DNA of 25,005 nt from Elusimicrobiota bacterium (GCA_041603335.1 JBFIEP010000001.1:1-25005), one strand, 5' to 3'; shown: positions 4,863 to 25,005, counted from the first letter of the stretch. The notes: generated by a model from the letters alone, not told the origin. Numbers and translations are program-made.

Positions 4863-5004
4863 TGGGGTGTTGGGCCCTTTAATTTCTCCTATTTGCCTGA
4901 TCGACCTATAGGTGATTTGAGGCGCTGTTATACAATCGAGAGGTCGCCATGGGAAGCGGCAGACGTGCCGTAGAAGTAAAAATGCCGAACAATCGAGGGA
5001 ACAC

Positions 5005-8000
5005 ATGATTCTTAAACAGTCCATTTCGGGACTTCTCGTAATCACTCTCTGTAGCAGTCACGCCACTCCCGCCTTTAGCCGTACGATCGCCGCGGGAAAC
5101 ACGGCGAATGCAAAGGTCGGCATGCCGGCCGCCATCAACACTCCGGCAACGTCTCTCACCACTCTCCCTCAAAACTCTCCCGCCCTCAACGGCGGGATTT
5201 CTTTTGCCCCATCCAACCTTCCCACATTGGATATGGCAAACCCGGCAACCTTGTCGCTAAACGTTACCGGTGTCGCTGGAAAATCTGCTGCAGTCGTTCC
5301 CTCGAATGCAGCCGTTATCCGACAACAGGCACCCGCGGGGTCGATCGCGTCCGTTATGCCCGCTCAGCCGGTCGTTCGCCGAGGACGTACGGCGAACGTC
5401 CAACTTTCCAATGCCGCTGCCCCCAACGCTGCTAAAAAAGAAACGGTTCTTGGATCGGCCGGTGAGCTTAACGCCGCAACCAAGAAATCAGGATTCGGCC
5501 GTGCCGCTCTTGGTCTCTTTAATCGCTTCTTTGACGGATTCGGAAAACGACAGACGCTCAACGGTGCCGATGAAGTAAAAGGGAAAGCGGCACCCGCGCG
5601 GCGCGGCGCTCTCGGCGACGTAGTCTTCCACGCTCTTAAAGACGGCAGCGACATCCGCACGCATCTTCCGCGAACTGTCGTTGTTTACGATACCTTCGCA
5701 GACAAAGCGCCCCAAGCAACTGTCAGCCGCCTACAAACCCTTATTAATGAAGGCGTACACATTGTTGTTATTTCCGACCGTCCCGAACGCGGCGAAGGGT
5801 CGATCGACGAAATTCTCGTTTCTAAACTGAAACCCTCAAAAACGAATCCGATCGCTGTCGCCAGCTATGCCGGTGCGCGCATCTCCTTTAAAGAGTCCTC
5901 GAAATGGACCGTCGTCAATGAAGCCGGTGCCTTCCAGGCGTCCGACATTGACCGCTTGGCGGAAATCGCCGCGCGTGCAAGTAGTGCCGTTAAACTTAAG
6001 AACACTCCCTCCTACACGGTTTCCCCAAAACAGGGCGACGCCCTCTCCGTTGAATTCCACCTGGAAGGAAAAGACCGGACCGGAAAAATTGTCGAAGCCC
6101 GGCGCCGCAATTTCATTGTCCGTTTTAACCGCTCGCTGTCTGCATCCAAGTCACCCTACCGCGCGCAGGAAAACCCCAACGACCCCGCCTCGATTATCAT
6201 AAACGCCTTGGCCCCGCGGCTCGCATTAGGCCGCATCGACAATGCGCTCAATGAACGCTTTAAAGGCGAAGACCTCACAGGAAAAGGCGACGAGACCATG
6301 GTCCTTTTAAGCGCGCGCGGGAACGAATCCTTCATGCGTACGATCACCGCCGATCCGGAATCCGTCCCGGGCTTGTTCCGCAACGCCTCCGTTCTCGACG
6401 CAGCCGATGCCGGCGCCCAAGCTTCGCTGCTCGGCGCCGTTGTCGAGGGGTCTCAACAGGCACCCATCGACGTTTCCATGAGCGACATGCGCCAATACCT
6501 CGACTTCTGGCGTCCCGTACTCGGCCGCAGCGGCAAAATAGCGAAGAGCAAGAACAACACCTCCGCAGGACGCTTCGGTCTTTTCACATGGCAGGTCCTG
6601 CACGACCTCATGACCGACTTCTACGTGGACACCGCCCGCGCCGGAACGAAATACACGAACTTCGGAAAATTCCGGGACTCGCTGCGCATGCGCTGGGCCG
6701 GAAAATCCAAGGACGGAAAGTTCCAACGCTATCGCGGTTCCAAGGCCGGAAAGACCGCAAACTCCGAATACCTCCGACACGCAGAACGCTTCGCCGAGAA
6801 TTTCTGGCAGCGCGAAATCGGCGACTTCCGAACCGCGCAGCTGGACATCCGTGAAAACCTTGTCACTGAAGGGAAGGTTTACACCCAAGTCCCTCTTCGA
6901 TCGCCGTTCACGGGACACACCTATAATCTCGGCGTTTCCATTGACCGCGTCATGAAGGTAGATACCTCCCAGGGCCGGGAATTAAACGCGACGATTTACC
7001 GGTTCGGAAAAGAGGCCGCGACCGACGGCGATGAAGCCCAAGCCCGCGCGGTGGCTCTCGCCGTGCTTCGCGGCTACGGCCGCAAAGGCGTGGACCTAAA
7101 GTGGCACCAGGGCTCCATTGAAGGACCGGCGCTGGCTCGCATCACCGTTCAAATCGAATACCTGAAACGCGCCCGGATTTTCGACTTCACGCCGGATGAA
7201 CTCCTTCAGATTGAAGCCGACGGCTCAATCTCCCAAGGCCCGAAAGCGCTCGAACTCGTTAACGAGATTGAATCCGCACAAGCCGACTACAAGTATGTCG
7301 CCTCTAAAAAGAAGAAGAGCAAGGTTGCTCCCAATCCGGAATGGGAGGGAACGGAGTGGGATGTCCGGGGAGAAGCCCTGAGTAACGTTTTTGCCGGGTA
7401 TTACCCCGACGCCCCAACCGTAGACCGTCTTCGCCCATTTATGAGTGAAGCGACCGCGCTTCGACCGCAGCCGAAATCGGAGCGCAGAGCGCAGATCGAA
7501 ATTCTCGACTCCAAAATCAACTGGCCCTCAAACGCCAAGACGCCCGACCCGATCGATGAGGACGGGTCCCAGATTGAAGACGATATCGAAGCGACGCCGC
7601 GCGTCGTTTTCATCGAAGACATTTTTAATGAACCCGCCGATGACGCAACGGTGGATCGCGTCCAGCGCCTCATCGATGCGGGAGCCCACGTCGTGTTTAT
7701 GACAGCGCGCCCGCACAAAGGGGAGGATTCCGCTGACAGCGTTCTTCTAGACCGTCTCAAGGTCGGACAGGCAAACCCGGTCATCGTCGCCAGCAACAAC
7801 GGCGGCCGCATCGCACTCCACTCCCGAGCGAAGGCATCGAAGCCTTATATTGACGACAGCCGGGCCTTTAACGACGAGACGCTCAAAACCTTCGACACCG
7901 TGGCCAATACCCTTTCCGGCGATCTCGACATTGAGTTTGAAATCGAAGGAACGGCGTTCCAATACGATATCTGGATTCCGCAATCGGTTTCCGCCGGCGA

Positions 8001-9348
8001 CGTCGCTTCAACCCGCTCAAAGTTAATCCGCGGCTTTAACGCGGCAATGAAAGCGGAAGGCCTCGAGTACACCATTCAGAAGCACCCGAAAAACCCGCGC
8101 CAGCTATGGGTCCGCTCCCAGCCGATGCGCATGTCGCTTGACCGCATCTTCCAAGCCCTCGACAAGCGTTTCGCAGGCGAAGAACTTCTCACCCGCCCGG
8201 AAACGTTCTTAGTGATCGGAGACTCGAAACGCTCGCTGAAGCTTTCGAAGGCCTGGCCGAAACTGACGACCTTCCGCTCGGCGCAGAACGAAAGCGAGAT
8301 TTTCGACTACCTCGGAAACATTCTCGGGGATCGAAAACAAAAGCAGGTAGGCGTTAAGCTCGGTGAGATTCGCTCCTACAGTGAGTTCTGGGAACCGATG
8401 CTGGAACGCCGTTCCGGAAACTTCGGAAGCGGGGGACACCAAAGCGCCCGAATGACCGAAGAAGACCGCCGCTACCACGGACCGTTAGCGATGTTCACCG
8501 GGTCTATCTTCTACAAGTTAATGCCGGAACTTTTCGAGAACGTTTGGCGCGGACAAGCCCGCAACACATCACGGTCGCACGCCATGAAGCGCCTTGAAGA
8601 TATGTGGCGCAATCCGGAAAAAGAAGGCGTGTTTGTCAGCAAGCGGCAGGCAGCGGTGATGAGCGAGCCCGGCTGGAAAACCCGCTCACGCGGCTACCTG
8701 CAGCGGGCACTCACGCTCTTTGGTGAAATTTACGACCGCACGTTCGACCACTACACCGACGCGGCCCAGGACATCATGCACAACATGGCCGCCCTCGCGA
8801 CCGATCGCCAAAGCCTGATCACGCTCGTTTTCAAGTCAGGCGGAAAGATCTACAAAGTATTCACGCGGCTGCCGCGGCTCATGAAGCATGACACCGTAGA
8901 CGGTCGGGTGTTGTCGGTAATCGCGTATCGCACCGGAAAGGAGCCTTTCGAAGGCGACGGCGGCGGAATTTACGCGAAAACGCTCGCGATGGCCGTTCTC
9001 GCCGGGTTCGCACAGCCCGGAAACGACGGCCAGTGGCACGACGGCTGGGCACAAGGACCGCGCATTTCAAAACTCCACATTCGATTGGAGTACAAGCAGG
9101 GAGCGCGGGATCTTTACTTCGACCCGAGCGACTTCTTTAAGATCCTGCCCAACGGCAGCTACCGCCAAGGTGTTGTCGTTAAGGAAATCGCAAATTTGAT
9201 CGAGCGCATGCGCGCCGATGAAGAGTTTCAAGAGCACTTCAAAGCTGAGAACGAAAAAGCGACCGATGAAGAAATCGCGGAAGCCAAGAAGAAGGGCAAG
9301 GGGACTGCCAAAAAACCGGCGGTCCTACAGAAGGGGGCAAAAAAATGA
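5005..9348 (+). CDS. P1: 1447-aa leader-bearing protein with two tandem ~550-aa units, each a degenerate HAD-IIB-like domain plus a degenerate PD-(D/E)XK-like domain
   Basis: GAGGGA SD 4 nt before the ATG; signal-peptide-like N-terminus. The internal duplication is visible in aligned blocks (VHIVVISDRP/AHVVFMTARP; NPIAVASYAGARI/NPVIVASNNGGRI; IYRFGKE/IAYRTGKE; WHQGSIEGPAL/WHDGWAQGPRI; IEYLKRAR.FDF/LEYKQGAR.LYF). Confidence 0.9.
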   Translation: MILKQSISGLLVITLCSSHATPAFSRTIAAGNTANAKVGMPAAINTPATSLTTLPQNSPALNGGISFAPSNLPTLDMANPATLSLNVTGVAGKSAAVVPSNAAVIRQQAPAGSIASVMPAQPVVRRGRTANVQLSNAAAPNAAKKETVLGSAGELNAATKKSGFGRAALGLFNRFFDGFGKRQTLNGADEVKGKAAPARRGALGDVVFHALKDGSDIRTHLPRTVVVYDTFADKAPQATVSRLQTLINEGVHIVVISDRPERGEGSIDEILVSKLKPSKTNPIAVASYAGARISFKESSKWTVVNEAGAFQASDIDRLAEIAARASSAVKLKNTPSYTVSPKQGDALSVEFHLEGKDRTGKIVEARRRNFIVRFNRSLSASKSPYRAQENPNDPASIIINALAPRLALGRIDNALNERFKGEDLTGKGDETMVLLSARGNESFMRTITADPESVPGLFRNASVLDAADAGAQASLLGAVVEGSQQAPIDVSMSDMRQYLDFWRPVLGRSGKIAKSKNNTSAGRFGLFTWQVLHDLMTDFYVDTARAGTKYTNFGKFRDSLRMRWAGKSKDGKFQRYRGSKAGKTANSEYLRHAERFAENFWQREIGDFRTAQLDIRENLVTEGKVYTQVPLRSPFTGHTYNLGVSIDRVMKVDTSQGRELNATIYRFGKEAATDGDEAQARAVALAVLRGYGRKGVDLKWHQGSIEGPALARITVQIEYLKRARIFDFTPDELLQIEADGSISQGPKALELVNEIESAQADYKYVASKKKKSKVAPNPEWEGTEWDVRGEALSNVFAGYYPDAPTVDRLRPFMSEATALRPQPKSERRAQIEILDSKINWPSNAKTPDPIDEDGSQIEDDIEATPRVVFIEDIFNEPADDATVDRVQRLIDAGAHVVFMTARPHKGEDSADSVLLDRLKVGQANPVIVASNNGGRIALHSRAKASKPYIDDSRAFNDETLKTFDTVANTLSGDLDIEFEIEGTAFQYDIWIPQSVSAGDVASTRSKLIRGFNAAMKAEGLEYTIQKHPKNPRQLWVRSQPMRMSLDRIFQALDKRFAGEELLTRPETFLVIGDSKRSLKLSKAWPKLTTFRSAQNESEIFDYLGNILGDRKQKQVGVKLGEIRSYSEFWEPMLERRSGNFGSGGHQSARMTEEDRRYHGPLAMFTGSIFYKLMPELFENVWRGQARNTSRSHAMKRLEDMWRNPEKEGVFVSKRQAAVMSEPGWKTRSRGYLQRALTLFGEIYDRTFDHYTDAAQDIMHNMAALATDRQSLITLVFKSGGKIYKVFTRLPRLMKHDTVDGRVLSVIAYRTGKEPFEGDGGGIYAKTLAMAVLAGFAQPGNDGQWHDGWAQGPRISKLHIRLEYKQGARDLYFDPSDFFKILPNGSYRQGVVVKEIANLIERMRADEEFQEHFKAENEKATDEEIAEAKKKGKGTAKKPAVLQKGAKK
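5665..9240 (+). repeat. Protein-level tandem duplication within P1 (unit 1 ~5665-7320, unit 2 ~7594-9240)
   Basis: Collinear amino-acid similarity over the whole unit with an offset of 643 codons; diverged at the DNA level. Confidence 0.85.
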
Positions 9349-12056
9349 CCACGAATATAATGACCCGGGTCTTCCTCGCGATCGCACTCGCCGTGAACGC
9401 CGCCTCCCCGGCCTTCGCCCGCACCCTGACCTCCGTTAAAGTTGCGCCAAGCCTCTCTCCTGTCGCTGGACCGACCGCGATTATGGGAAGCAATGGCGTG
9501 CAGGGCCAATCGCTTAGTCTCTCGGCCCCAACGCTTGGAACATCGCTTCCAACACTTGCACCGGCACTGATGCCCAATACAGTCAATGCCGCCGTTTCAG
9601 AAGCCGCTGCTCCGGTTTCACGCAAATTTGTTCCCACGGCCAGCGGATCCGGCCAAGCACGCGTGATCGAGGCTGCGCCGAAGGCGGCGATTAACGCCGT
9701 ATCTCCCGCTAAGGGCTCGACGTTTAAACAAGCTGCGGCGAAGAGTGAAACGGTGGAGCATACCGTCGGTACAGTATTTTCAGGCCGCGCCGCGAAAATT
9801 ACCGGGCGCGTCCTCAACACGCTCTTTGATTTCAGCGGAGCCAAGAGCGCGCTCAACGGCGCAGATCTCTCTGACAATGCCGTCGACGCGGATGTCGACG
9901 CCAAAGTAAAAGCCGACGCGGAAGAAGATCTATCAATCGTTCCTGAAGATGAAGACGCCGCCTTGGATCTCTGGTTTGGTAAGACAAACCAAGGGAAACT
10001 CTTTGATTCCAAGATTTCGGCCTCCATCCGCCCGATCAACAACAAGGGAAGCGAACGGTTCTGGGGCCAGTATCAGAGGAAAATTCCTATCCGCATCATC
10101 GCCGGCGGAAAGGTTCAGTTCATCACGCGCATCGTCAAATCCTACACCCGAAAAATCAAGGACCTTACTTTAGAGGATTATAAAGCGTATTACGGCTCAC
10201 GCATCGCCGCAAAGAAGGGCGGCGAAACCGACGCGAAACAGCTCCAAAGACTCGAAAACAAGCTTCTCGCCGAAATTAAATGGAAGTCCGAACGGAAACT
10301 CAACGCACCGAAGGTCATCAGCAACGAGATGAAGGTTCGCGTTCTCAACTTCCTTCCTTATGATCAAGCCCGCGATCTCCCGGACAACGGCATTGAAAAG
10401 ACGCCGGCTGTTCGAGATCGCAAGGATCTCGAAATTCCGGCAAAGCTAAAAGACCTCCACCGCCTTTTACCAAGACTCGTCGTCTTCGATCTCCGCCTTT
10501 ACGGAGACCGCATTCCCTTTGATGTGCTCGAAGACATGGGGAAGCTTCAGAAAGCCGGAATGACCTTCGTCTTCCTTTCAGACAAAACACAAGAAGAAGT
10601 CGAGAAGATGATTCGCCGCGACACCCCGGCTCACCAGCAAAACGAAATCACACGCTGGAAATTACTGAGCCTCTCCAACGACGGAAACACCCTCTACGGC
10701 TTCTCGGGTTCTTTTGAGGAACTAAAAACCTCCAAGCAGTTCCAAGCCGACCAGCAGGAAATCATCAAGCGCGCCGCAGGAGCGACGGAAGGTGCGGTTG
10801 TCGTTACCGATCGCCGCTATATGCTTCAAATGCGCGGCAAGCGCGGCGTTAACCTGGATGAACTAAAAACCGCATTCGAGGCCCAACTAAAACGCTTCGG
10901 CATGCCCGAAGGCAGCTACTCGCTTTCCATCGGGGATAAAGAAGGAGCCCCCGTTGTTCAGGTTCGCCCTTCAACCCTAGCCAACTCAATGGAGCAGTTG
11001 ATCGCTGATCTGCAAGTCCACGAAGGCCTCTACCTGAATCAGGAGCATATCCTGACCGTTACAGACGATCCAGCGATCATGAAGGCACTTCCGGGTGCGA
11101 AGCATGCAGCGCCCGACATGCCCAAAGCCACCGACCGCTCCGACTACATTGAAACCGCATTGGCGGCGATGCTTGATACCTACCGCGTCAACAAGGTCGG
11201 GGACCTTGCGGCCTCGGCATCTTCGATGAAATCGTTCAAATACCGGCAACTCTACGGCGGCGGCGGCGGATTTGAATACCGCATCTATATGCTCATGGGA
11301 CACGTCGGGCACGCGGCGCTCGACTGGGCTGTCATGAAGTACAACGAAGACGGAAAACTCCCGCCCTTTGAAGACACCGTGAAGGTTGCCCGGGACATTT
11401 GGGTTCGCGAGCAAATCGATGTGACCAACAACATGCTTGAACGCGCTCGCGAAACGAACCTCGGGTACCGCGATGCGATGGAAGCGCGCATGTTCACCAT
11501 GTACGAAGAACTTCAACGAACGTTGGAGCTCTACCCGATCGCACTTGGAACCGAGCTTCCTAACTTGATGGTGGTCGACCGCTTCAACAAGGTCGGAGAG
11601 CCGACCCACCGCGACATCTTCCGCGGCCTGTTCGACTTGGTCGTCGCCAAAAAAGTGAAGGGCGGACTTGAAGTGTTTGTCACCGACTTTAAGACCGGTC
11701 AAACACCGGCGCTGCAGCACATGTCCAAGGATCTGCAGGTTTTGCTATACGACTTCTTCTCACGCAAGCTCTGGCCGACCATCAATGCGCCGTATTCATT
11801 GGCGCAACCGCTTGTGAAGGTCGTCAGCCGCGTCGTTGCCTTCATCTTCCCGCGCGGCATGCAGGGAAAGACAATCAACGAATTCGACCGCCTGACATTT
11901 GAGAAAACCATCAATCTCCTCATGCTCAAAATGCGTAAGCATAGCGGGAACCTTACCGAAGAGATGATGGAGAAAGAACGCCTGAAGGCGGAACGCGAAG
12001 CGCGCAAGGAACTCGCAGAAGCCAATAAAAACAAGAAAAAGTCCGATAAAAAATAA
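9345..12056 (+). CDS. P2: 903-aa leader-bearing protein with an ASCH/PUA-like domain, a degenerate HAD-like domain and a C-terminal RecB-family PD-(D/E)XK nuclease domain
   Basis: ATGA overlap with the P1 stop. Nuclease motifs SASS..SF, GHVGHAAL, E737, GLFD764L, TD781FK783TG and Q798VLLY802. HAD-like blocks PRLVVFDL, FVFLSDK and LSNDGN. Confidence 0.9.
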   Translation: MTTNIMTRVFLAIALAVNAASPAFARTLTSVKVAPSLSPVAGPTAIMGSNGVQGQSLSLSAPTLGTSLPTLAPALMPNTVNAAVSEAAAPVSRKFVPTASGSGQARVIEAAPKAAINAVSPAKGSTFKQAAAKSETVEHTVGTVFSGRAAKITGRVLNTLFDFSGAKSALNGADLSDNAVDADVDAKVKADAEEDLSIVPEDEDAALDLWFGKTNQGKLFDSKISASIRPINNKGSERFWGQYQRKIPIRIIAGGKVQFITRIVKSYTRKIKDLTLEDYKAYYGSRIAAKKGGETDAKQLQRLENKLLAEIKWKSERKLNAPKVISNEMKVRVLNFLPYDQARDLPDNGIEKTPAVRDRKDLEIPAKLKDLHRLLPRLVVFDLRLYGDRIPFDVLEDMGKLQKAGMTFVFLSDKTQEEVEKMIRRDTPAHQQNEITRWKLLSLSNDGNTLYGFSGSFEELKTSKQFQADQQEIIKRAAGATEGAVVVTDRRYMLQMRGKRGVNLDELKTAFEAQLKRFGMPEGSYSLSIGDKEGAPVVQVRPSTLANSMEQLIADLQVHEGLYLNQEHILTVTDDPAIMKALPGAKHAAPDMPKATDRSDYIETALAAMLDTYRVNKVGDLAASASSMKSFKYRQLYGGGGGFEYRIYMLMGHVGHAALDWAVMKYNEDGKLPPFEDTVKVARDIWVREQIDVTNNMLERARETNLGYRDAMEARMFTMYEELQRTLELYPIALGTELPNLMVVDRFNKVGEPTHRDIFRGLFDLVVAKKVKGGLEVFVTDFKTGQTPALQHMSKDLQVLLYDFFSRKLWPTINAPYSLAQPLVKVVSRVVAFIFPRGMQGKTINEFDRLTFEKTINLLMLKMRKHSGNLTEEMMEKERLKAEREARKELAEANKNKKKSDKK

Positions 12057-12081
12057 GTTTTTTAACTCCTTAAAAAGGAAG

Positions 12082-12109
12082 GGCCCCGCCGCGGCGGGGC
12101 CTTTTTTTT
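12082..12109 (+). terminator. Rho-independent terminator after the P1-P2 operon
   Basis: GGCCCCGCC / GGCGGGGCC GC-rich inverted repeat followed by T8 (12102-12109), 25 nt after the P2 stop; an A-rich run upstream may make it bidirectional. Confidence 0.92.
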
Positions 12110-12156
12110 GCCCCTCTGAAGACCCATAAATCCCTAGGCCTTAATCCTTGACACCT

Positions 12157-12172
12157 CAGGGCCTAGGACCCA
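12157..12172. promoter_or_regulatory. Candidate operator CAGGGCCTAGGACCCA upstream of P3
   Basis: 12/16 identical to 15382-15397; abuts the expected -35 position of the extended -10 at 12192-12200. Confidence 0.5.
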
Positions 12173-12191
12173 GAGTCTAAAGCCTGACCCC

Positions 12192-12200
12192 TGGTACAAT
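12192..12200 (+). promoter_or_regulatory. Extended -10 promoter TGgTACAAT for P3 (likely leaderless or near-leaderless transcript)
   Basis: TGn + TACAAT ends 8 nt before the ATG at 12209; no SD in between. Confidence 0.6.
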
Positions 12201-12208
12201 AGTTGTAT

Positions 12209-15200
12209 ATGGAAAAGAAGAAATCTATCCCGTCATCCTTTATCAAATCCCTTTCAATCTCTGTCGCTGCCGCCCTGATCGTCGCCTCGCCCGGTCCCTT
12301 TGCGACCCGTGCGTTTGCGAAGGTACTAGGGAAGGCTCCGACGAACATCTCTGTTGGCGTGACCCTTGGCCAGATCGGACTACCGGCTCTCGGCTCCCCT
12401 TCATTAACGAACGCAAACGCCACGCTTGCCGCGCCGCAGCTCGGAGCCAGCGTTCTTCCGACGCTTATTGCGCCGACATTCACCCAAAGCAAAACGGTCG
12501 CCCAGCAGGCGACCGTTTCTCGTTCCGCCGCGCCGGAAGCCGCAATCGCTGCCGAGCAGATAATTTCGATCGCTCCGACATCCGCACGCTCACTTGTTGT
12601 TGAAGAAACGGAAACCGCGAAGAAGGAACAGCCCACAACGCTTCAGGACCTGACAGCCGGCGTTGCGGAAATTAAACAAGCGAAGTCGCACTCCGGTGCC
12701 CGCGCAGCACTCACAAATCTTTTCACCGGCAGCCGCAAGACAGCGCGAACAGATACGGTTCTCGGCCGTATCGGACAACGCGCCAGTTCCCTTCTTTCGC
12801 CTGCGAAATCGCTTAACGCAGCCGATGAAAAATCGTCAAAGAAAACAACGGACGTTCCCGCGCCTCCGGCAGCCAATGACGACTTTCTCGATAAGCAGGC
12901 GACAAAGCAGGTCGCAAACCTCGTTGCTGAATACAAACGCATCGATGAAGCCGGACTGTGGGCCGACGCGAAAGAAACCGCGGTTTTCGTTAAAGAAATA
13001 ACCTGGTTCGCCGCCCGAGGGCGGGACAAGGACGGATCACCGGAACTCTCGATTCAAAAAATCGAGGAAGCACTCGCCGCAGAAGGCATCTCCAACACCG
13101 CCGCAGTGCGCAAACAGCTCATCGCTTTAAATGAGTCCACCCAATTAGGCCTCTCGGAACAAAAAGCCGCCGGCGGATCCTACCTCGCCGCAGAGGGCGT
13201 TGATGACGACGGCTTTACACCGATGCAGCGAAAAGGTCTTTTCGGAATGCTTTGGTCCCGCCCTTTTGGAATGCTCGGCTTCTCACTGAGCGCGATGGCC
13301 TATCCCTTGATGCTCATCGACACCGTTGGAAAATCAACGATGTATGAGCTCTTCTCCTTGGGCGGCATCATCTCCATTGGCGTCAATCTGCTTGTCGGAA
13401 AAGTCGGAGACCACCTTCCGCTTAAGAAATACATCGTTTTCAACGCCCTTCTCCGCTCGGCATTAAGCGCGGCCAACGCCGTTCTTTACACGATGGGCTT
13501 CCTCAATTTCTGGTCCCTGCTGTTTCTCACCGTCATCAACGCCTGGCAGTTCGCCAGCCTCTTCATTACCGATGACGCGATGATGGCCGAAATCGTAGGC
13601 CCCAACCGGAAGAAGATCTTTTCGACGTCCATCCTCATCCGGACGATGGGACTATTCGTCACGATCGGTTCCGGCATTTTCCTCGGAGAATTCATCGTTG
13701 ATGGATTAGGATTTGTAGCCACCTTCTCAATCGTTACGGTCGCCGCCGCCATCCCGGCCCTTATTCTCTGGGGAGCACTGCCCAACATCGGCGTAAAGGA
13801 TGGAAACGCGCCGCTTGGAACGGTTCTCGCGAAACTTCCGGGGATGGTTCTCGCCGCACCGGGCAAAGCTTTCAACGCCCTTAAAGGTCTGCCGTGGAAA
13901 AAATACGGGTCTTACGCCCTGACAGCCCTCAGCCTGGGTTCGACAGCGGCAGCCTTCTACTTCGGAACCCCGCTAGTGGGAACAGCCATTACAATGACCT
14001 ACGGCGTCATCGGCGGCGTTCTTGTCGCGGCGGCATCGTCTATCGGACTCGTTGCGGCCAACCGCCTCATGAAGGCGCACAAGGCCGAGCAGTCGGGAGA
14101 ACCGATCGAAGACAAAGAGGGCGACAACGTTCGCACCGTTCTCTTTAATACCGCGATCATCGGAGCAGCCCTCGCCGGCTACACCTTCATCTACCAGACG
14201 CCGTTCTGGTTTGTCGGCGGCGTAACCTACATGCTCACACGATCGGAAATCTTTAAGAAAGTCATCATGCGCCACGGCCTGCTAAAGATGGCGCTGCTCA
14301 TGGTTATCGCGACGACATTCGTAGAGGTCCCGCTTAGAAACGCCGTGCTGGGTGCACTCTCGGAAGAACTCGTCGGCGAAGCCGGCAAGGCTGCCTTCTA
14401 CGGAAAGCTGATCGCCGCGTTCACGCTCGGACAGCTCGTCACGGCGACGGGGAATCTTTCCCGGTCGCTGCAGATTGTGGTCAAAAAGCTCGGGTTCTTT
14501 AAACTAAAGAAACCGCTCTCCTTCAATCTATACCACACAACGCGCTGGCTCGGCGCCGCGGTACTCGCCGCGTGGGGACTCTACTTCATCGTTCCCGCCG
14601 GTTGGCTCGCCATGGCTGCCGCAGCGGTTCCGAATCTCACCGCCCAATTCGGATTTGAGGCCGGAATAAAACTCGGACTCATCGGGCCGTTGCTCGGAAT
14701 GTTTGCCGGTGCCATGACAGCACTCTGGGGCTACGCACGCCAAGACAAAGGCAAGAAATTCGGCTCAACACTTAAGACGGTGGGAACCATCGGGTTTGTC
14801 GCGGCCTTAACACTTCCGATTCTACCCGGACTCATCGCGGCTCTACCCGCAGGCGTCACAACGGCCCTGGGTCTGGCCATTGCCGGCGGAGCGTTCTACA
14901 AGTTCTACCAGCTCATCCATGACAACGCCAAAACAATTAAGCCGACCTCGTGGCTCCGCCTGGAAGCGGTGGGACTCGTCGCCATCGGTGTTCTTCCGCT
15001 CGTGACAGGGTTTAACCCGATTGCGCTGTACGCCAGCTTATTCCTATTCGGAATGACGCATACGCCGGCTAAGTACAATATTGGATCAGCCTACTCGGCT
15101 ACCGCTAAAGAAGTAGACGATAAGAACTACCAGTTCCTCAGCGCCATTAAGGGAACGTTTGTGGTCATGGCAGGGTCCATTGCCTACGCGATATACGGCC

Positions 15201-15367
15201 TGGCCAAGGATATACCCGAGATGCTCTGGGACAATCCGAACGCCTTCCCGTTCACCTGGCAGGTGCTCGCGGTCATTTACGGCGCCATTGCCGCCCTGTA
15301 TGTTTACAGCAGTTACCGGATGAATTTCGACAAGAAGAAAGCATCCGAAAAAAAGACGGAAAAATAA
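12209..15367 (+). CDS. P3: 1052-aa leader-bearing protein with a short helical domain and an expanded (~20 TM) MFS-type permease
   Basis: Start moved from TTG 12203 to ATG 12209 on promoter geometry. MFS motif-A-like G-KVGD-HLPLKK after TM2; many hydrophobic helices; collinear similarity to the P4 MFS region. Confidence 0.88.
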   Translation: MEKKKSIPSSFIKSLSISVAAALIVASPGPFATRAFAKVLGKAPTNISVGVTLGQIGLPALGSPSLTNANATLAAPQLGASVLPTLIAPTFTQSKTVAQQATVSRSAAPEAAIAAEQIISIAPTSARSLVVEETETAKKEQPTTLQDLTAGVAEIKQAKSHSGARAALTNLFTGSRKTARTDTVLGRIGQRASSLLSPAKSLNAADEKSSKKTTDVPAPPAANDDFLDKQATKQVANLVAEYKRIDEAGLWADAKETAVFVKEITWFAARGRDKDGSPELSIQKIEEALAAEGISNTAAVRKQLIALNESTQLGLSEQKAAGGSYLAAEGVDDDGFTPMQRKGLFGMLWSRPFGMLGFSLSAMAYPLMLIDTVGKSTMYELFSLGGIISIGVNLLVGKVGDHLPLKKYIVFNALLRSALSAANAVLYTMGFLNFWSLLFLTVINAWQFASLFITDDAMMAEIVGPNRKKIFSTSILIRTMGLFVTIGSGIFLGEFIVDGLGFVATFSIVTVAAAIPALILWGALPNIGVKDGNAPLGTVLAKLPGMVLAAPGKAFNALKGLPWKKYGSYALTALSLGSTAAAFYFGTPLVGTAITMTYGVIGGVLVAAASSIGLVAANRLMKAHKAEQSGEPIEDKEGDNVRTVLFNTAIIGAALAGYTFIYQTPFWFVGGVTYMLTRSEIFKKVIMRHGLLKMALLMVIATTFVEVPLRNAVLGALSEELVGEAGKAAFYGKLIAAFTLGQLVTATGNLSRSLQIVVKKLGFFKLKKPLSFNLYHTTRWLGAAVLAAWGLYFIVPAGWLAMAAAAVPNLTAQFGFEAGIKLGLIGPLLGMFAGAMTALWGYARQDKGKKFGSTLKTVGTIGFVAALTLPILPGLIAALPAGVTTALGLAIAGGAFYKFYQLIHDNAKTIKPTSWLRLEAVGLVAIGVLPLVTGFNPIALYASLFLFGMTHTPAKYNIGSAYSATAKEVDDKNYQFLSAIKGTFVVMAGSIAYAIYGLAKDIPEMLWDNPNAFPFTWQVLAVIYGAIAALYVYSSYRMNFDKKKASEKKTEK

Positions 15368-15381
15368 CGATTATTTATACC

Positions 15382-15397
15382 TAGGCCGTAGGTCCCA
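15382..15397. promoter_or_regulatory. Candidate operator TAGGCCGTAGGTCCCA upstream of P4
   Basis: Best-matching copy of the motif shared by four upstream regions. Confidence 0.55.
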
Positions 15398-15414
15398 ATA
15401 ACTCCTAGGCACAC

Positions 15415-15453
15415 AAACACCCTCTGGGCCCCTTATTGGCTCAGGGGGTGTTT
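15415..15453 (+). other. 16-bp RNA stem-loop in the P3-P4 intergenic region
   Basis: AAACACCCTCTGGGCC-(CCTTATT)-GGCTCAGGGGGTGTTT pairs without interruption, with two G-U pairs on the plus strand; it ends 24 nt before the AGGAGGT SD. Confidence 0.7.
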
Positions 15454-15489
15454 CGGGTTTTGAGACACAATTTAAATAGGAGGTGGTTG

Positions 15490-18400
15490 ATGTATATTAA
15501 TTCCAGAATCGCTGTCGGAGCAACCCGAATGATATCGGGACTGCTCGTTATTGCGATCTGGATTTCTTCAATTGGACCCGCCGCAGCCCAGGCTGCCGGT
15601 CCTGTCATAGGCAAAACCGCTGCGGGCGCCATCAAAGCTCCGGCCACGCTCGTCATCCCCTCCATTGCCGCTCCCATTCTCGGAAATACCGCCTCAAATT
15701 CAATTGTTCCTGGACTTGAATCAGGAGTACTTCCCACTTTAACTCCTACGATTCTCGCGACACCCGAAAAGGCCGCATCTGTTTCCGTTCAAAAATCCCC
15801 TATTGCAGAATCAATTGCTTCGGCAGAGACAAAGGCAGAGGAAGAAAAACCCGCCAAAACCGTTCGTGAACAAGTCGTAAAAGTCGCACAGCAACTCACC
15901 CAAACCAAGGGTTCATCCGCTCAAGCTAAAGTCCTAAACACTCTCTATCTTGGCGGACTTAATGCTGCGGACGAATCCAATAATGGCGTCGACGCCTCGG
16001 GAGGCACGCCCTCGAAAAATGTGCGCCTGCGCAAACAGGCGCTCGCGGAACTCGTCATTGCGGCAACCCAACCCAAAAGCACGCTCAAGAGCCGCAAGGC
16101 TGCAATTCGAGTTATCGCGAAGGTCCAAACCGAAGAAGCACGCGAAGCGCTGGAGCTCGTCGCGGACGCAAACCCCGAGGGAAACGCGCAGGACTATGAG
16201 ATCCACCGCGAAGCACTCAAAGCCCTTGATGCAAAATTCGGACTCCACAAATCCCTTCGCCCCATCTCAGAGTCGCACAAAAACGAGATTCTCGCACAAC
16301 TCGCCGCCGACAAACCCGAAATGGTCCTTACCGACTATGACCGCACCCTCGCGGAGACGAAGGTTGAAATTTCACCGGAGATGGCCGAGGCGGTAGCATC
16401 TGTCCCTAACGCGGGCGTGGAAATTGCAATCCTAACCGACCGACCCGCGCAGCCGCGCTTTGAAGGCGACATCACCATCTTTCAATCACTCGAATCAATG
16501 ACGCCCGCTCAAAAGAGCAAGCTCACCGTACTCTCCGATATCGGGTCAAAAACGTCCCTTTTTAACAAAAACGGCTCACCCCAATTGATCGGTGAAGTAA
16601 GGACCGAATTAACCGCTCAACAGCGGGAGGTGCTCGGCAAGGCTTCAAAGGCGCTTCAGGAGCGGTTCGGGGACCAGGACTTTCTTGGCAACACGGAAGT
16701 CTATGAAGCCGATTCCTACGAACGCTTTCTCCCCAAATCCCTAAGCGATGCGGAAATTGCGGAAGCCGGATTGCTGGTAGAAACCATCCTCAAGGCGGAC
16801 GGTGTTCTCGACGCTCATATCGTCTCCCGCCGGCCGCTGGGAAAAGGGGACGTTCCCTACGTTCGCGTTAACATCGTTGATAAATCCGCTTCCGCAGCCC
16901 GTATCCGCAAGGATGTCCGCTTTCTGGAACGGGCCCGCGACGTCATCCGCTTCGGCGGCGGGACACGCGCGCTGAAGTTCGCTAAGAAAATTTTCTCCCG
17001 TTTCCCCCGGCGGCCTGTGACCGCGAGAAAAACCGTCGTTATCGGCGACAGCTTTATGCCCGAAGTCGTCGCTCCGGGATCTGACGCCCTGATGGCAAAA
17101 GGCGCCCCCGAAGCTCTGTCCTTCGCCGTCGCGGGAGTCGCGAGCCCCCGCGTCAACAACGTGTTCGTTTGGCCCACCATGGGGGAAACCGCTTCGCTAG
17201 AAATTCTCGGGGCCATCGGAACGAAAGCCGTAAGCGATGTCGATAAAAAAGGCGTCGCGGGTCTCTTCGCGCAGCGAACGATTGCGATCACAACCTTTAT
17301 TCTCACAACAATTGCGTTTACAGCCATCGCGGTTCCCGCCATCGGGTGGGTCGGCTACGGAACGGTCATGGCCGTGGGTGCGTTAGCCCCCATTGCCGTG
17401 GGTCCTCTTAACGGCTGGATCGTCGATAAGCTCTCAGCCCGCAATTCGATGATGATGAATCAAACCGCACGCGTACTCCTGGACTTCCTTCCCCCCGCGC
17501 TCGTCTTGCTGGGAATGGTGAATACGCCGATGCTTATCGTCGCGGCGATCGCGAACTTCTGGGTTCTTTCCTCGGTCATGACGACCGAGGGCGCCTACAT
17601 TAAACGCCTCGCCGGGAAAAAATACGTGGGTCCGATTAACAGCCTGCTTTGGATGAACTACCTGGTCGTTCAGGTTGTCCTGGCTCTCATCCTTGGGTTC
17701 GGAGCGGTCGTTGGAATCGTGGGGCCTATCAATGCCTACTTCATCGCCGCCGCCATCAACGCCTTTATTATTATGCCGATCGTCTGGGTTACGATGCCGA
17801 ACGCAAAACCGATCCCAAAAACATTGTTGGGCATAGAATCGGAAATGCAAGGACTGAAAGACGGCCCTCGCCTTAAAAATCTCGAGAAAGCCCTGAATGA
17901 AAGAGAGTCGGCTTTAAACAAAGAAGTCGACCAATTTGAACTTGCCCTCGCCGATCTTGAGAATAATAAATCCCCCGATGTTGAGACAGAGCTTCGCGTA
18001 ACCCGTGAAGACCTTGCCGCGATGCGCGCGGAGCTCGCCCGAACACCGGCACCTTCCTTCACTCTCGCCCAGCGAAAGACAAATCTCAAAATCAAAATCG
18101 CAGCCGGACTAAAGCAATACGGCATTGGATTCGGACTGCTCGGGGCATCAGTCCTTAGCTACATTTTCCTATGGGCCTCCCCGGTTCCCATTGCGATCGC
18201 GTTGGGCTATCTTGTTTTACGCACCGACGGCGCAAAACTGCTGTGGTCCGGTCGCGGACGCGATATCAGCAAACAGGAATCCCAACTCGTTGAAACGATA
18301 CGCGCGCTGGAAGCGGAAGGCAAAACGGATTCGAAAGAACTAAAAGAGGCTAAGTCGGAACTCACCCGCTGGAAAAAATCTCCCCGCATCGCGATGCTCT

Positions 18401-22783: not shown

Positions 22784-23449
22784 ATGAAGCCCGAAGAAAT
22801 AGATGAAGCACTTCAACTCCTGGCCCCAATCGTCAGCCACGAACTTCGCAATCCGATGGCCGTGATTAAGAACTCGTCATATTTTATCAAGACCAAGCTC
22901 GGGAACCTAGACGTTAAAGATGAAAAAATCGCCCGGCACCTCAGTATTATCGATGTTGAACTGGTAAATGCCAACAATTGCCTCGAAGAAATACTCCTCT
23001 ACGCGCGGATGCCCGAAGCCAAGGTCTCTCCCCAGAACCTCAACGACCTCATCAAGGCGGCGCGCCTGGCCGTAGAGCTTCCAGACGGTGTCCTCATAGA
23101 ATCAGAACCTGCCGGCGAGGAAACCAAGGTCGAAGCAGACCCTGAACTTGCCGCCCGAGCCATCATGCACGTCATTCGCAATGCCGTCCAAGCGGCCTCT
23201 GCCGATGAAGATGCTGATGTCGCTGTTTCCGCCGACGACGACGGCACCGTTTTAGTTGTTGATTCCGCCAAGGGCGGAATCCCCGAAAAGGCCCTGCCGC
23301 GTCTCTTTGAACCCTTCAACACGACCAAGCCCAAGGGCATAGGGCTCGGACTCGCCTACGCCACCAAGGCGCTCGGGCGCATGGGCGCGACCCTAATACA
23401 CAAACCCGGGGATGAAACCGTGTTTGAAATTAAGTTTAAGAAGGCTTAA
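22784..23449 (+). CDS. Sensorless histidine kinase (HisKA + HATPase_c only)
   Basis: H-box SHELRNP, N-box IRNAVQA, atypical G1 DSAKGGIP, F/G2 LFEPFNTTKPKGIGLGL; no TM or sensor domain. ATG 22784 is preferred over TTG 22766. Confidence 0.88.
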   Translation: MKPEEIDEALQLLAPIVSHELRNPMAVIKNSSYFIKTKLGNLDVKDEKIARHLSIIDVELVNANNCLEEILLYARMPEAKVSPQNLNDLIKAARLAVELPDGVLIESEPAGEETKVEADPELAARAIMHVIRNAVQAASADEDADVAVSADDDGTVLVVDSAKGGIPEKALPRLFEPFNTTKPKGIGLGLAYATKALGRMGATLIHKPGDETVFEIKFKKA

Positions 23450-24903
23450 AGAAGCCAGCGCAGTAAACGGGCGGCCGCCCGCTGCAATCCCGAGAGGGGT
23501 TTATTCGCCAATTCCTTCATTGTCTCGAGCGTGAGCAGGAAAGCATTCTTGTAATGCTCAAGGGAGAACTCGGCGATGGTATCGTTTTCAGAATGAATGA
23601 TGTCCCAGATGACTTCGTTTGAAGCCCCCATCACGGTCATGCCTGGGATTCCGTACCGGCGAAACGTCGAAGAATCGCTGTCGCCGCCGCGCAGAACCAT
23701 TTCCTGAAGTGCGTACCCGGTACGCACAGCAACGCTTTTTATCAAAGAAAGCAGCGAACGATCCGAATTGTTTTTCCAAGAGAATGTGCCGTCGACCGCG
23801 AGCGTGTCGAGATTTATCATCGCATCGATACGACTGCGTTCCGCCCGGTCCATGTTCCTTAGAAAGGCTTTCGATCCGAGCAATCCTTCTTCCTCACGGG
23901 CAAACCCGATGAAGACGATCGTGGCATCGGTCGCAAGATCATGCATGGCCTGATAGAGGTTGGCGACCATCGTCGCCCCCGTCCAATTGTCGATGGTTCC
24001 CGCGCCGCGGTGGACCTTGTCATGGTGACCGCCGACGACAATGACGCGATCGCTCTTTCCCGGCTTCACGACATAAATGTTATTGCGGCCGCGGCCGACA
24101 TCCTGTAAATGGATCTGATCACGGGACGCTCCGGCACGTTCGAAAAGCTCTACGAGAACCCGCTCTCGTTCGGGGTTGGTCAGGGGAGAGAGCGCGACGG
24201 AATCATGCAATTGATCATCGGTCGGCACGCCCAAAACGCCCAAGCGCGGACGTCCCGCTGAAAATCGGCGCTTGGCAAAGGAGACGAAGGATTCCGGCGA
24301 CTCGTGGGTGCTGGCGGCAGAGGCCGAGGGACCGCCGTCAAATAACGCGGCAAGACGGTCTTTAAAATTATTGCCCTCGGCGAAATCGCGGCTCAGGGCT
24401 TCAAAGAGGGGTCTGCCTTCGGCGTCGGGGCCCAAGGCCTCAATCTTTTTTGCGACACGAATTCCCTCGGGACCACCGCGTTCCCGCAACGTACGAACAA
24501 GGCGATCACGCTTTTCTCTATCACCTAAAGCCTCACCGACAATCCTTGCCGCATCAGGACGGCTCGCCAGTGCGGGAGACGCTGCCGGATTTCCCATCGG
24601 AGTCAAAGCGGGGAGGGTCTCGCGGGAGAGATATTCGACGGCTGCCGATTCTCCGGTGGGGAATAACCCTTCAGCTGGCAGTTGAATTAAATCTATATCG
24701 GGAAGTACGGTCCCGAGCCGAAGAGAAAGATGGTCCACCTGAAAGCCAATCGCTCGAACCGCTCCTGCGGCTACCCCGATAGAAGCTGGTGCAAAGGCAG
24801 GGGGCGTCATCGCCTTTCCCGGACCACGGAATGCAGTTGGTGCCGCTAGACCCGGGACAGAGAGTGTTAATGATAAGACGATTGAAAGGGCAGCTTTCCT
24901 CAT
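23446..24903 (-). CDS. Exported M28 family zinc peptidase with a ~200-aa low-complexity leader
   Basis: Zn-ligand motifs GGHHD, GTIDNWTG, REEEGLLGS, INLD and IHSENDT. Start reassigned to ATG 24903 (MRKAALSIVLSLTLSVPGLAA signal peptide). The leader contains LPALTP and LAALFDG. Confidence 0.9.
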   Translation of the reverse strand: MRKAALSIVLSLTLSVPGLAAPTAFRGPGKAMTPPAFAPASIGVAAGAVRAIGFQVDHLSLRLGTVLPDIDLIQLPAEGLFPTGESAAVEYLSRETLPALTPMGNPAASPALASRPDAARIVGEALGDREKRDRLVRTLRERGGPEGIRVAKKIEALGPDAEGRPLFEALSRDFAEGNNFKDRLAALFDGGPSASAASTHESPESFVSFAKRRFSAGRPRLGVLGVPTDDQLHDSVALSPLTNPERERVLVELFERAGASRDQIHLQDVGRGRNNIYVVKPGKSDRVIVVGGHHDKVHRGAGTIDNWTGATMVANLYQAMHDLATDATIVFIGFAREEEGLLGSKAFLRNMDRAERSRIDAMINLDTLAVDGTFSWKNNSDRSLLSLIKSVAVRTGYALQEMVLRGGDSDSSTFRRYGIPGMTVMGASNEVIWDIIHSENDTIAEFSLEHYKNAFLLTLETMKELANKPLSGLQRAAARLLRWLL

Positions 24904-24963
24904 AGTAATCCCACAATACAAAGCTGTCGGAAGTGCTCTATGAGCAGAAAGTCCCAAATCTCT

Positions 24964-24979
24964 CAAGGCATAGGTCCCA
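24964..24979. promoter_or_regulatory. Candidate operator CAAGGCATAGGTCCCA upstream of the M28 gene
   Basis: 12/16 identical to 15382-15397; 60 nt upstream of ATG 24903; an additional GTCCCA half-site at 24951-24956. Confidence 0.45.
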
Positions 24980-25005
24980 ACCGCTTGACAGTTCCCAGAT
25001 CAGGC

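Follow-up and report, generated by a model that had tools for sequence, protein, structure and literature searches.

The window examined here, a 25,005-nucleotide stretch of DNA from an Elusimicrobiota bacterium (GCA_041603335.1, JBFIEP010000001.1:1-25005), carries four large genes, P1 to P4, which are arranged head to tail on the + strand and whose products all begin with a leader of the same construction. The leader is an undescribed N-terminal module that is confined to one order of the Elusimicrobiota, and the short motifs by which it was noticed are its conserved islands. In this 3.6-Mb genome the one tag defines a sub-proteome of at least 51 large proteins, a few percent of the coding capacity, that is nearly free of cysteine (Cys), and the same is seen order-wide. 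The leader is tentatively read as a membrane-targeting tether and partner-recognition tag that acts on the cytoplasmic side, for a Cys-free sub-proteome centred on the inner membrane. On this point the evidence divides into two strong and opposed lines, namely a Sec-like N-terminus together with the exclusion of Cys, and cargo that needs ATP and is N-in on the side of the membrane where the leader lies. The window is contig C1 of an assembly of 3.64 Mb in 852 contigs, 84% complete and with 54% G+C.

The leader and its motifs

A preliminary description of the window proposed that P1 to P4 share a tripartite leader of three short motifs, LPTL, a helix end of the LxxLF/Y type and LN[GA]AD, which would act as a secretion or processing signal. 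All 12 motif occurrences translate exactly at the positions assigned to them, and they are preceded by signal-peptide-like N-termini that end in PAFS, PAFA, RAFA and AAQA (P1 to P4), with R, R, K and A as the next residue. The four genes and their leaders are as follows.

P1: 5005-9348, + strand, 1447 amino acids (aa), leader-bearing, two HAD-like/nuclease-like units
P1 leader: 5005-5574, + strand, signal-like helix 5005-5079 (PAFS end), LPTL 5218-5229, LFNRFFDG 5515-5538, LNGADE 5557-5574
P2: 9345-12056, + strand, 903 aa, leader-bearing, PD-(D/E)XK nuclease domain
P2 leader: 9345-9869, + strand, signal-like helix 9345-9419 (PAFA end), LPTL 9546-9557, VLNTLFDF 9810-9833, LNGADL 9852-9869
P3: 12203-15367, + strand, leader-bearing polytopic membrane protein, about 14-20 transmembrane (TM) helices, no Cys
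P3 leader: 12209-12829, + strand, signal-like helix with S-P-G and RAFA 12209-12319, LPTL 12455-12466
P3 leader, second half: + strand, two-helix hairpin 12638-12724 ending in ALTNLFTG (12707-12730), LNAADE 12812-12829
P4: 15436-19167, + strand, leader, HEAT-like region, HAD-IIB phosphatase and major facilitator superfamily (MFS) transporter, no Cys
P4 leader: 15490-15975, + strand, signal-like helix 15490-15594 (AQA end), LPTL 15730-15741, VLNTLYLG 15931-15954, LNAADE 15958-15975

The likely starts of P3 and P4 are the ATG codons at 12209 and 15490. P1 lacks Cys after its signal helix, and P2 has no Cys at all and no TM helix after the leader.

The motifs are real, but they are not peculiar to P1 to P4 and belong to a module found throughout the genome. 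In general form they read L-P-(T/S), [LIVF]xx[LIVF][FY]xG and [LVFM]N[AG]AD. A six-frame regular-expression scan of the genome gave 28 occurrences of LN[GA]AD in open reading frames (ORFs) of at least 80 aa, against approximately 3 expected, a figure estimated from amino-acid composition. In about 20 of the 28, which belong to large ORFs on other contigs, a signal-like helix and a stretch rich in A/P/S/T stand 110-260 aa ahead of the motif. When 19 of these leaders were made into a profile, it retrieved 51 six-frame ORFs at E<1e-3 (best 7e-45), so that the enrichment behind signal-like N-termini, on which the preliminary description had staked its proposal, is found genome-wide. The search expression offered there misses P1 in its strict form (L..L[FY]).

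The leader is about 170-230 residues long and is built in a fixed order. A basic n-region is followed by a hydrophobic helix of 10-15 residues, an S-P-G kink and a short second helix that ends in A-x-A. Behind A-x-A lie 40-55 uncharged A/P/S/T/G/L/V residues containing L-P-(T/S), then a basic disordered stretch, and the leader closes with a two-helix hairpin that ends in L-x-x-L-F-x-G, to which the genus of this bacterium adds [LV]N[AG]AD in a coil. Across an order-wide alignment of 62 leaders the S-P-G kink is kept as S in 34 (A in 15), P in 52 and G in 56, while A stands at -3 in 56 and A, G or S at -1 in 57, with Q, R or K next. In the same alignment L-P-(T/S) is kept as L in 56 and P in 58, and LFxG as F in 41 and G in 47. 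AlphaFold was run on residues 3-260 of P3 with these 62 leaders as the alignment, and it predicts a helix at 9-26, a break at S-P-G and a helix at 30-40, with a predicted local distance difference test score (pLDDT) above 80. A predicted coil (41-143) then leads to the hairpin (144-157 and 161-172, block-mean pLDDT 76-94, LFTG at its end), after which the coil resumes through LNAAD at a pLDDT of about 50. The xPG...AxA signature occurs in 12 of 44 leaders and in only 4 of 267 ordinary signal-like N-termini of the same genome, and on this count of sequences it is a hallmark of the leader. One idea that would have reconciled an exported N-terminus with cytoplasmic cargo, that the L-P-T-L block makes a second membrane pass, was set aside; the block has two to three prolines per 14 residues, falls below TM hydrophobicity in all but one leader and is predicted to be coil.

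That selection holds the motifs in place within drifting low-complexity sequence, as was first suggested from P1 to P4, is borne out by orthologues, whose motif blocks are kept at 66-88% identity while the intervening spacer is reduced to 24-41% and contains insertions and deletions. Conserved blocks within a drifting spacer are what characterises short linear motifs set in disordered sequence. By the predicted structure, the first and third motifs are linear motifs and the second is the end of a small folded element. Four residues, the L of LPTL and N, A and D of LNAAD, do not vary among 22 paralogous leaders with a mean column identity of 24%. Outside the genus the third motif is rarer. Its region is misaligned in the order-wide MAFFT alignment, and it was therefore scored by regular expression against shuffled sequences; 9 of the 54 leaders that come from other genomes of the order contain a loose form of it, against 1.4 expected. 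Because it is not conserved across the order, LNAAD is a lineage-specific addition of the genus and its close relatives and not the core of the signal.

Family size and distribution

The leader is strictly N-terminal in all 51 ORFs, the profile match starting within approximately the first 80 residues of the stop-to-stop frame, and a broadened profile adds five further ORFs, including an M28 peptidase of the window. Matches are found in 35 of 41 genomes of the same order, with 20-38 copies per genome in the bacterium's own genus and 1-20 in other genera, in ORFs of up to 5,405 aa. The longest frame lies in a sister genome (G001:C123:9340-), and other giant leader-bearing frames of about 3,400 aa are seen in G012:C58, G003:C59 and G005:C91. 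In a sample of the phylum 19 of 301 genomes were matched, all of the same order, and about 270 genomes of other orders gave no match at the sensitivity attainable with a single-genome model.

No Pfam or NCBIfam family match covers the leader, and the ESM Atlas returned only Elusimicrobiota clusters, at sub-threshold scores. Profile matches to ubiquilin and ribosomal P0 in the PDB were rejected as low-complexity and compositional. The leader was not found described in the literature searched.

Of approximately 1,660 leaderless ORFs of at least 300 aa in the genome, 316 are free of Cys in the counted part. Among these 316, 91 are truncated by the end of a contig and are possible carriers with a lost leader. 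Several others have leader-like N-termini that are missed by the profile, for example on contigs C471, C13, C379, C111, C30 and C59. Because of these N-termini and the Cys-free ORFs at contig edges, the family is probably larger than 51.

Cargo proteins and membrane sidedness

The proteins behind the leader, here called its cargo, belong to many families. Within the genome itself they include ATP-binding cassette (ABC) exporters, two of them with a full complement of transmembrane and nucleotide-binding domains (TMD-NBD-TMD-NBD), MFS and MscS transporters, a double-ring ClpB-like AAA+ protein, an acyltransferase and AMP-binding enzyme, an RNB exoribonuclease, LOG, phospholipase D (PLD) and nucleotidyltransferase proteins, an alpha-amylase and an M50+S8 protein. 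Among 40 carriers of eight sister genomes are M48 (7) and M50 (7) proteases, CPBP/Rce1-like and trypsin+PDZ proteins, PspA/IM30 and an MFS-ATP-grasp fusion; at least one TM helix is predicted after the leader in 37 of these 40, and several in 35. Taken as a list, the cargo looks like inner-membrane upkeep and quality control.

In the form in which it was made, the proposal of a secretion signal for the cargo is not supported. Most carriers are polytopic proteins of the inner membrane or enzymes that depend on ATP, and the catalytic motifs of the latter are intact (Walker A/B and LSGGQ motifs, in the ABC nucleotide-binding domains, and ATPase motifs in both ClpB-like rings). Moreover, the end of the leader lies on the same side of the membrane as the ATPase domain, or as a canonical N-in helix, in every case that can be judged. 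Automated positive-inside counts over whole proteins were too noisy, owing to missed TM helices, and sidedness was read instead from ABC and MFS junctions defined by Pfam and from the flanks of the first TM helix. No TM helix separates the leader from the ATPase or from a canonical N-in first helix in C358, C161, L129 and P4. The ABC elbow and first helix directly abut the leader in C161 and L129, as does the first MFS helix in P4, where MFS motif A can be read on the leader side and Pfam MFS_1 matches residues 615-802. Three ABC paralogues have an intervening two-TM hairpin with K/R-rich outer flanks on both sides. In L113 the ClpB-like rings come after four TM helices, in C358 after none, and in L103 a complete 12-TM MFS transporter precedes the ATP-grasp domain. 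In the cases judged, the chain always crosses the membrane an even number of times on its way from the leader to the ATPase or N-in helix, which constitutes a same-side rule. A noisy trend is seen at the first TM helix after the leader, where K/R is more frequent in the N-flank than in the C-flank for 32 proteins and less frequent for 16 (p=0.03).

The broader suggestion that the leader is a recognition signal fares better. A common and strictly N-terminal tag implies recognition in trans, and it is the secretion of the cargo that is in doubt.

Cysteine exclusion

Only 2 of the 29,258 residues in the cargo parts of 49 carriers are Cys, whereas Cys makes up 0.88% of the residues of 2,952 other long ORFs. 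By class, Cys makes up 1.02% of cytoplasmic-type proteins, 0.58% of signal-like soluble proteins, 0.72% of leaderless polytopic proteins and 0.014% of carriers. Leaderless ABC, AAA+, RNB and AMP-binding paralogues of the same genome mostly contain Cys. In the 40 carriers of the sister genomes 12 of 35,769 residues are Cys, and 34 of these carriers lack it entirely. Even the TM segments of carriers are affected, with no Cys in 3,449 residues where 40 would be expected. DsbA-like and DsbB-like genes are present, and the mature parts of ordinary exported proteins in the window are mostly Cys-free.

Exclusion of Cys is a known adaptation of exported proteins to oxidising surroundings (Daniels et al. 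2010, PMC2823432), and the carriers resemble such proteomes in the systematic removal of Cys from one localisation class. They differ in that removal is near-absolute (0.007-0.03%), includes TM and ATPase domains and tracks a single leader, not the exported proteins at large. The loss of Cys from the whole chain is real, and a cytoplasmic tether explains it only ad hoc, for example through oxidation-proof paralogues. It also makes the carriers natural Cys-less backgrounds for topology mapping, so that their sidedness is directly testable.

Comparison with known systems

In form the leader resembles a Sec signal cleaved by signal peptidase I (SPase I) and followed by a disordered linker or pro-region, of which the tethers of Gram-negative envelope proteins are an example. 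The leaders have an n-region, an h-region of 9-15 residues, a Pro/Gly breaker and an A-x-A with an aromatic residue at -2, followed by an A/P/S/T-rich stretch free of Cys; the mean net charge of the N-flank is +1.9, and small residues occupy -3 and -1 behind the helix breaker in 56 and 57 of the 62 aligned leaders, respectively. Unlike such signals, the leader extends for 150-200 residues as a conserved module with motifs and a hairpin of its own, and it is common to more than 50 unrelated cargoes that are ATPases and N-in transporters rather than envelope proteins. Its c-region, from S-P-G to A-x-A, is about 10 residues and longer than usual. Signal-peptide predictors will probably call the carriers secreted, which would distort the predicted secretomes of Elusimicrobiota metagenome-assembled genomes (MAGs).

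The S/T-R-R-x-F-L-K consensus of Tat signals is absent from the aligned leaders, as are the double-glycine (C39) motif GG and the type IV prepilin motif (G followed by F before a hydrophobic helix). The lipobox of lipoproteins (SPase II) is also absent, the carriers having no Cys and the one Cys of P1 lying inside the h-region outside any lipobox context. On paper the two-partner secretion (TPS) domain of TpsA proteins (PF05860) offers a parallel, being a conserved module that immediately follows the signal peptide in proteins of great size, low Cys content and variable C-terminal cargo; a few short conserved motifs define it, and a dedicated partner reads them. The leader, however, is a predicted coil with a small alpha-hairpin and not a beta-helix, and its cargo is polytopic or ATP-dependent. 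PF05860 has no match on P1 to P4 at E<=0.1, and the NPNL and NPNGI motifs are not seen in the leader.

A precedent for cargo kept on the cytoplasmic side is the monotopic phosphoglycosyl transferase PglC, which enters the membrane by a re-entrant helix with a Ser-Pro break (Entova et al. 2018, PMC6133551). The leaders share with it a basic dyad of N-terminal K/R residues, a hydrophobic helix of approximately 14 residues, a Ser-Pro break and a short second helix, and the helix-break-helix predicted by AlphaFold is of the same kind. They are unlike PglC in that the second helix (30-40) is amphipathic and ends in A-x-A, what follows is a long disordered spacer, predicted as coil, where PglC has a globular domain. 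In addition, P1 and P2 have no S-P-G and very short h-regions, and there is no sequence relationship.

Function of the leader

In the mechanism put forward here, the hydrophobic helix-kink-helix would insert in or at the inner membrane, and the part downstream of it would not be exported. The disordered spacer would then form a flexible leash on the cytoplasmic side, where ATP is available, and the hairpin and short linear motifs would offer docking sites for one shared partner, such as a scaffold, an adaptor or a protease. This partner would gather membrane-maintenance enzymes, that is ABC, MFS and MscS transporters, M48, M50 and CPBP proteases, ClpB-like and MoxR ATPases, PspA, lipid-repair enzymes and nucleases. 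LNAAD may be an additional, genus-specific docking or processing motif at the boundary between leader and cargo. Were such a tether confirmed, it would represent a new bacterial way of organising membrane-maintenance machinery around a common docking module.

Several observations weigh against a cytoplasmic tether. The N-terminus is that of a textbook Sec/SPase I substrate (basic n-region, short h-region, helix breaker, A-x-A), and A-x-A has no obvious need in a cytoplasmic anchor. The net charge of the N-flank is equal to or greater than that of the C-flank, which favours an N-in/C-out orientation, that is export. The helix after S-P-G is amphipathic and not hydrophobic, in which it departs from the re-entrant helix of PglC, and the h-regions of P1 and P2 have just 9-10 residues. 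The exclusion of Cys resembles that of exported proteins in a genome with DsbA and DsbB, the uncharged A/P/S/T spacer resembles an envelope linker, and some cargo types are usually extracytoplasmic (S8, HtrA-like trypsin+PDZ, M28, amylase). The docking partner, finally, is purely putative. The evidence from cargo and topology is given more weight than that from the signal, because the families concerned are well understood and because export demands both periplasmic ATP and violation of the positive-inside rule; the preference for a tether on the cytoplasmic side follows from this weighting.

True export would be supposed by taking these same features at face value, and it is an unlikely account but the one to be taken most seriously beside the tether. 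The leader would comprise a cleaved Sec signal peptide, with the spacer, hairpin and motifs serving as a periplasmic pro-region, a tether or a secondary sorting signal read by a chaperone or an outer-membrane component, and the whole cargo would be extracytoplasmic and would need its own supply of ATP. The canonical n-h-c layout with a positive n-region and its well-kept -3 and -1 positions speak for it, as do the 40-55 uncharged residues directly after A-x-A, which in P1 to P4 read like export-initiation regions. The near-total lack of Cys beside DsbA and DsbB also fits, as does a set of secretome-type hydrolases that extends to HtrA-like proteins, PLD, nucleases and phosphatases besides S8, M28 and amylase. 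At least three secretin genes are present; the secretin family (PF00263) gave five matches, two of them partial, on contigs C58, C768, C277, C575 and C442. Against export stand the intact ATPase motifs of the ABC domains and of both ClpB-like rings, and cargo of the AMP-binding, ATP-grasp and PspA types. ATP is not known from the periplasm of any bacterium. The leader adjoins the N-in ABC elbow and the first MFS helix, and its export would invert every transporter relative to the positive-inside rule. Periplasmic oxidation alone is also insufficient for the lack of Cys, which extends to TM segments beyond the reach of DsbA. If export were nevertheless true, ATP-dependent machines and inverted transporters would operate beyond the cytoplasm, and a basic assumption of bacterial cell biology would fall.

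A somewhat less probable variant accepts this consequence. The leader would be an export or transit signal that defines a second, ATP-using extracytoplasmic compartment, be it an energised periplasm, an internal compartment or a partner cell, to which chaperones, RNases, lipid-repair enzymes and whole transporters are delivered unfolded and Cys-free. The archaeon Ignicoccus has an ATP-containing intermembrane space, and the compartment would be a bacterial counterpart of it.

The preliminary description also considered a maturation cleavage site. In that case LN[GA]AD would free the cargo, either through succinimide-type self-cleavage at Asn-Gly/Ala or through a dedicated protease, and this would fit either topology. 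The invariance of N, A and D in the 22 paralogues points in this direction, and so does the position of the motif, exactly at the leader-cargo boundary in a predicted coil, with a small residue (G/A) always after Asn and an acidic or polar linker next. On the other side, most leaders in the other genomes of the order lack even the loose form while keeping the rest of the leader, so that cleavage at LNAAD cannot be the core function. Asn-based self-cleavage, moreover, normally depends on a fold that supplies the catalytic context, and a coil has none. Such cleavage is accordingly rated as improbable, and below both forms of export.

A translocated arsenal, in which a bipartite signal made of a signal peptide and a transit-like region sends whole unfolded proteins across the oxidising periplasm to another ATP-containing compartment, in a host or prey cell or within the bacterium in an unrecognised internal compartment, is very improbable. 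It is the only model that fits A-x-A, whole-chain Cys exclusion, intact ATPases and positive-inside flanks on the ATPase side together, and the cargo resembles a maintenance kit for a membrane-bounded compartment. Passages in two papers, which place some Elusimicrobiota in association with protists (PMC11257099, PMC9476967), were counted in its favour. Searches of the 84%-complete genome, however, did not find FHIPEP, VirB4 or TssC, the markers of type III, type IV and type VI secretion systems, and of possible machinery only the secretins were detected. A search for a TLC-type nucleotide transporter gave no match either, but it carries no weight, its control having been equally negative. Strongly hydrophobic TM helices behind a Sec signal should also stop transfer and enter the bacterium's own inner membrane.

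That the leader has no function, its similarity reflecting the shared ancestry of recent duplicates and low-complexity composition, is hardly credible, for although the leaders are of low complexity (enriched in A, P, S, T and V) and several carriers are tandem paralogues (contigs C1, C22, C46 and C72), the cargo domains come from unrelated families, leaders that are mutually only 22-36% identical retain a common set of residues in three families and about 20 genera, motif blocks persist between orthologues while spacers drift, the leader is never found other than at the N-terminus, and the hairpin reaches a block-mean pLDDT of up to 94.

Gene organisation of the window

P1 and P2 overlap at 9345-9348, where the stop codon of P1 and the start codon of P2 share the sequence ATGA, and because of this overlap the two are probably translationally coupled. 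P4 is 71% identical to its orthologue in the Elusimicrobia MAG NORP122. The neighbours of P1 to P4 are genes for a ClpC-type ATPase, a beta-lactamase-like protein, a FlgD_ig-domain protein, a PorV-like barrel, a HAD hydrolase, a histidine kinase and the following peptidase.

M28 peptidase: 23446-24966, - strand, N-terminus a weak match to the broadened leader profile (E 8e-4)

In the peptidase a signal helix with V-P-G is joined by a short stretch rich in A and P, and no Cys is present after the matched leader segment; the protein is possibly a fifth, degenerate leader carrier in the window.

The FlgD_ig-domain protein and the PorV-like barrel lie downstream of P3 and P4 (19688-22140, + strand). 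In NORP122 (L031 7223-9660) the P4 orthologue is likewise followed by a pair of ORFs, of 495 and 317 aa, the resemblance being one of spacing and nearly equal sizes. The best PorV-like matches in the sister genomes G002, G004, G005 and G016 are on the same contig as leader matches. The PorV-like family is greatly expanded, with 2-22 matches in every searched genome of the order, and a specific partnership with the leader was ruled out, since the family is present even in genomes without leader matches.

An upstream element of the type GGnCC(n2-3)GG[AT]CCCA is found 35-115 nucleotides before leader genes, at the following sites.

GG[AT]CCCA-type element, window: 4880-4900, 12170-12190, 15385-15410 and 24967-24985
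GG[AT]CCCA-type element, elsewhere in the genome: contigs C44, C97 and C358

In its strict form the element precedes 6 of 42 leader genes and 21 of 1286 others, an enrichment of about 9-fold, and it is possible that it reflects co-regulation, as a shared operator or promoter of a leader regulon.

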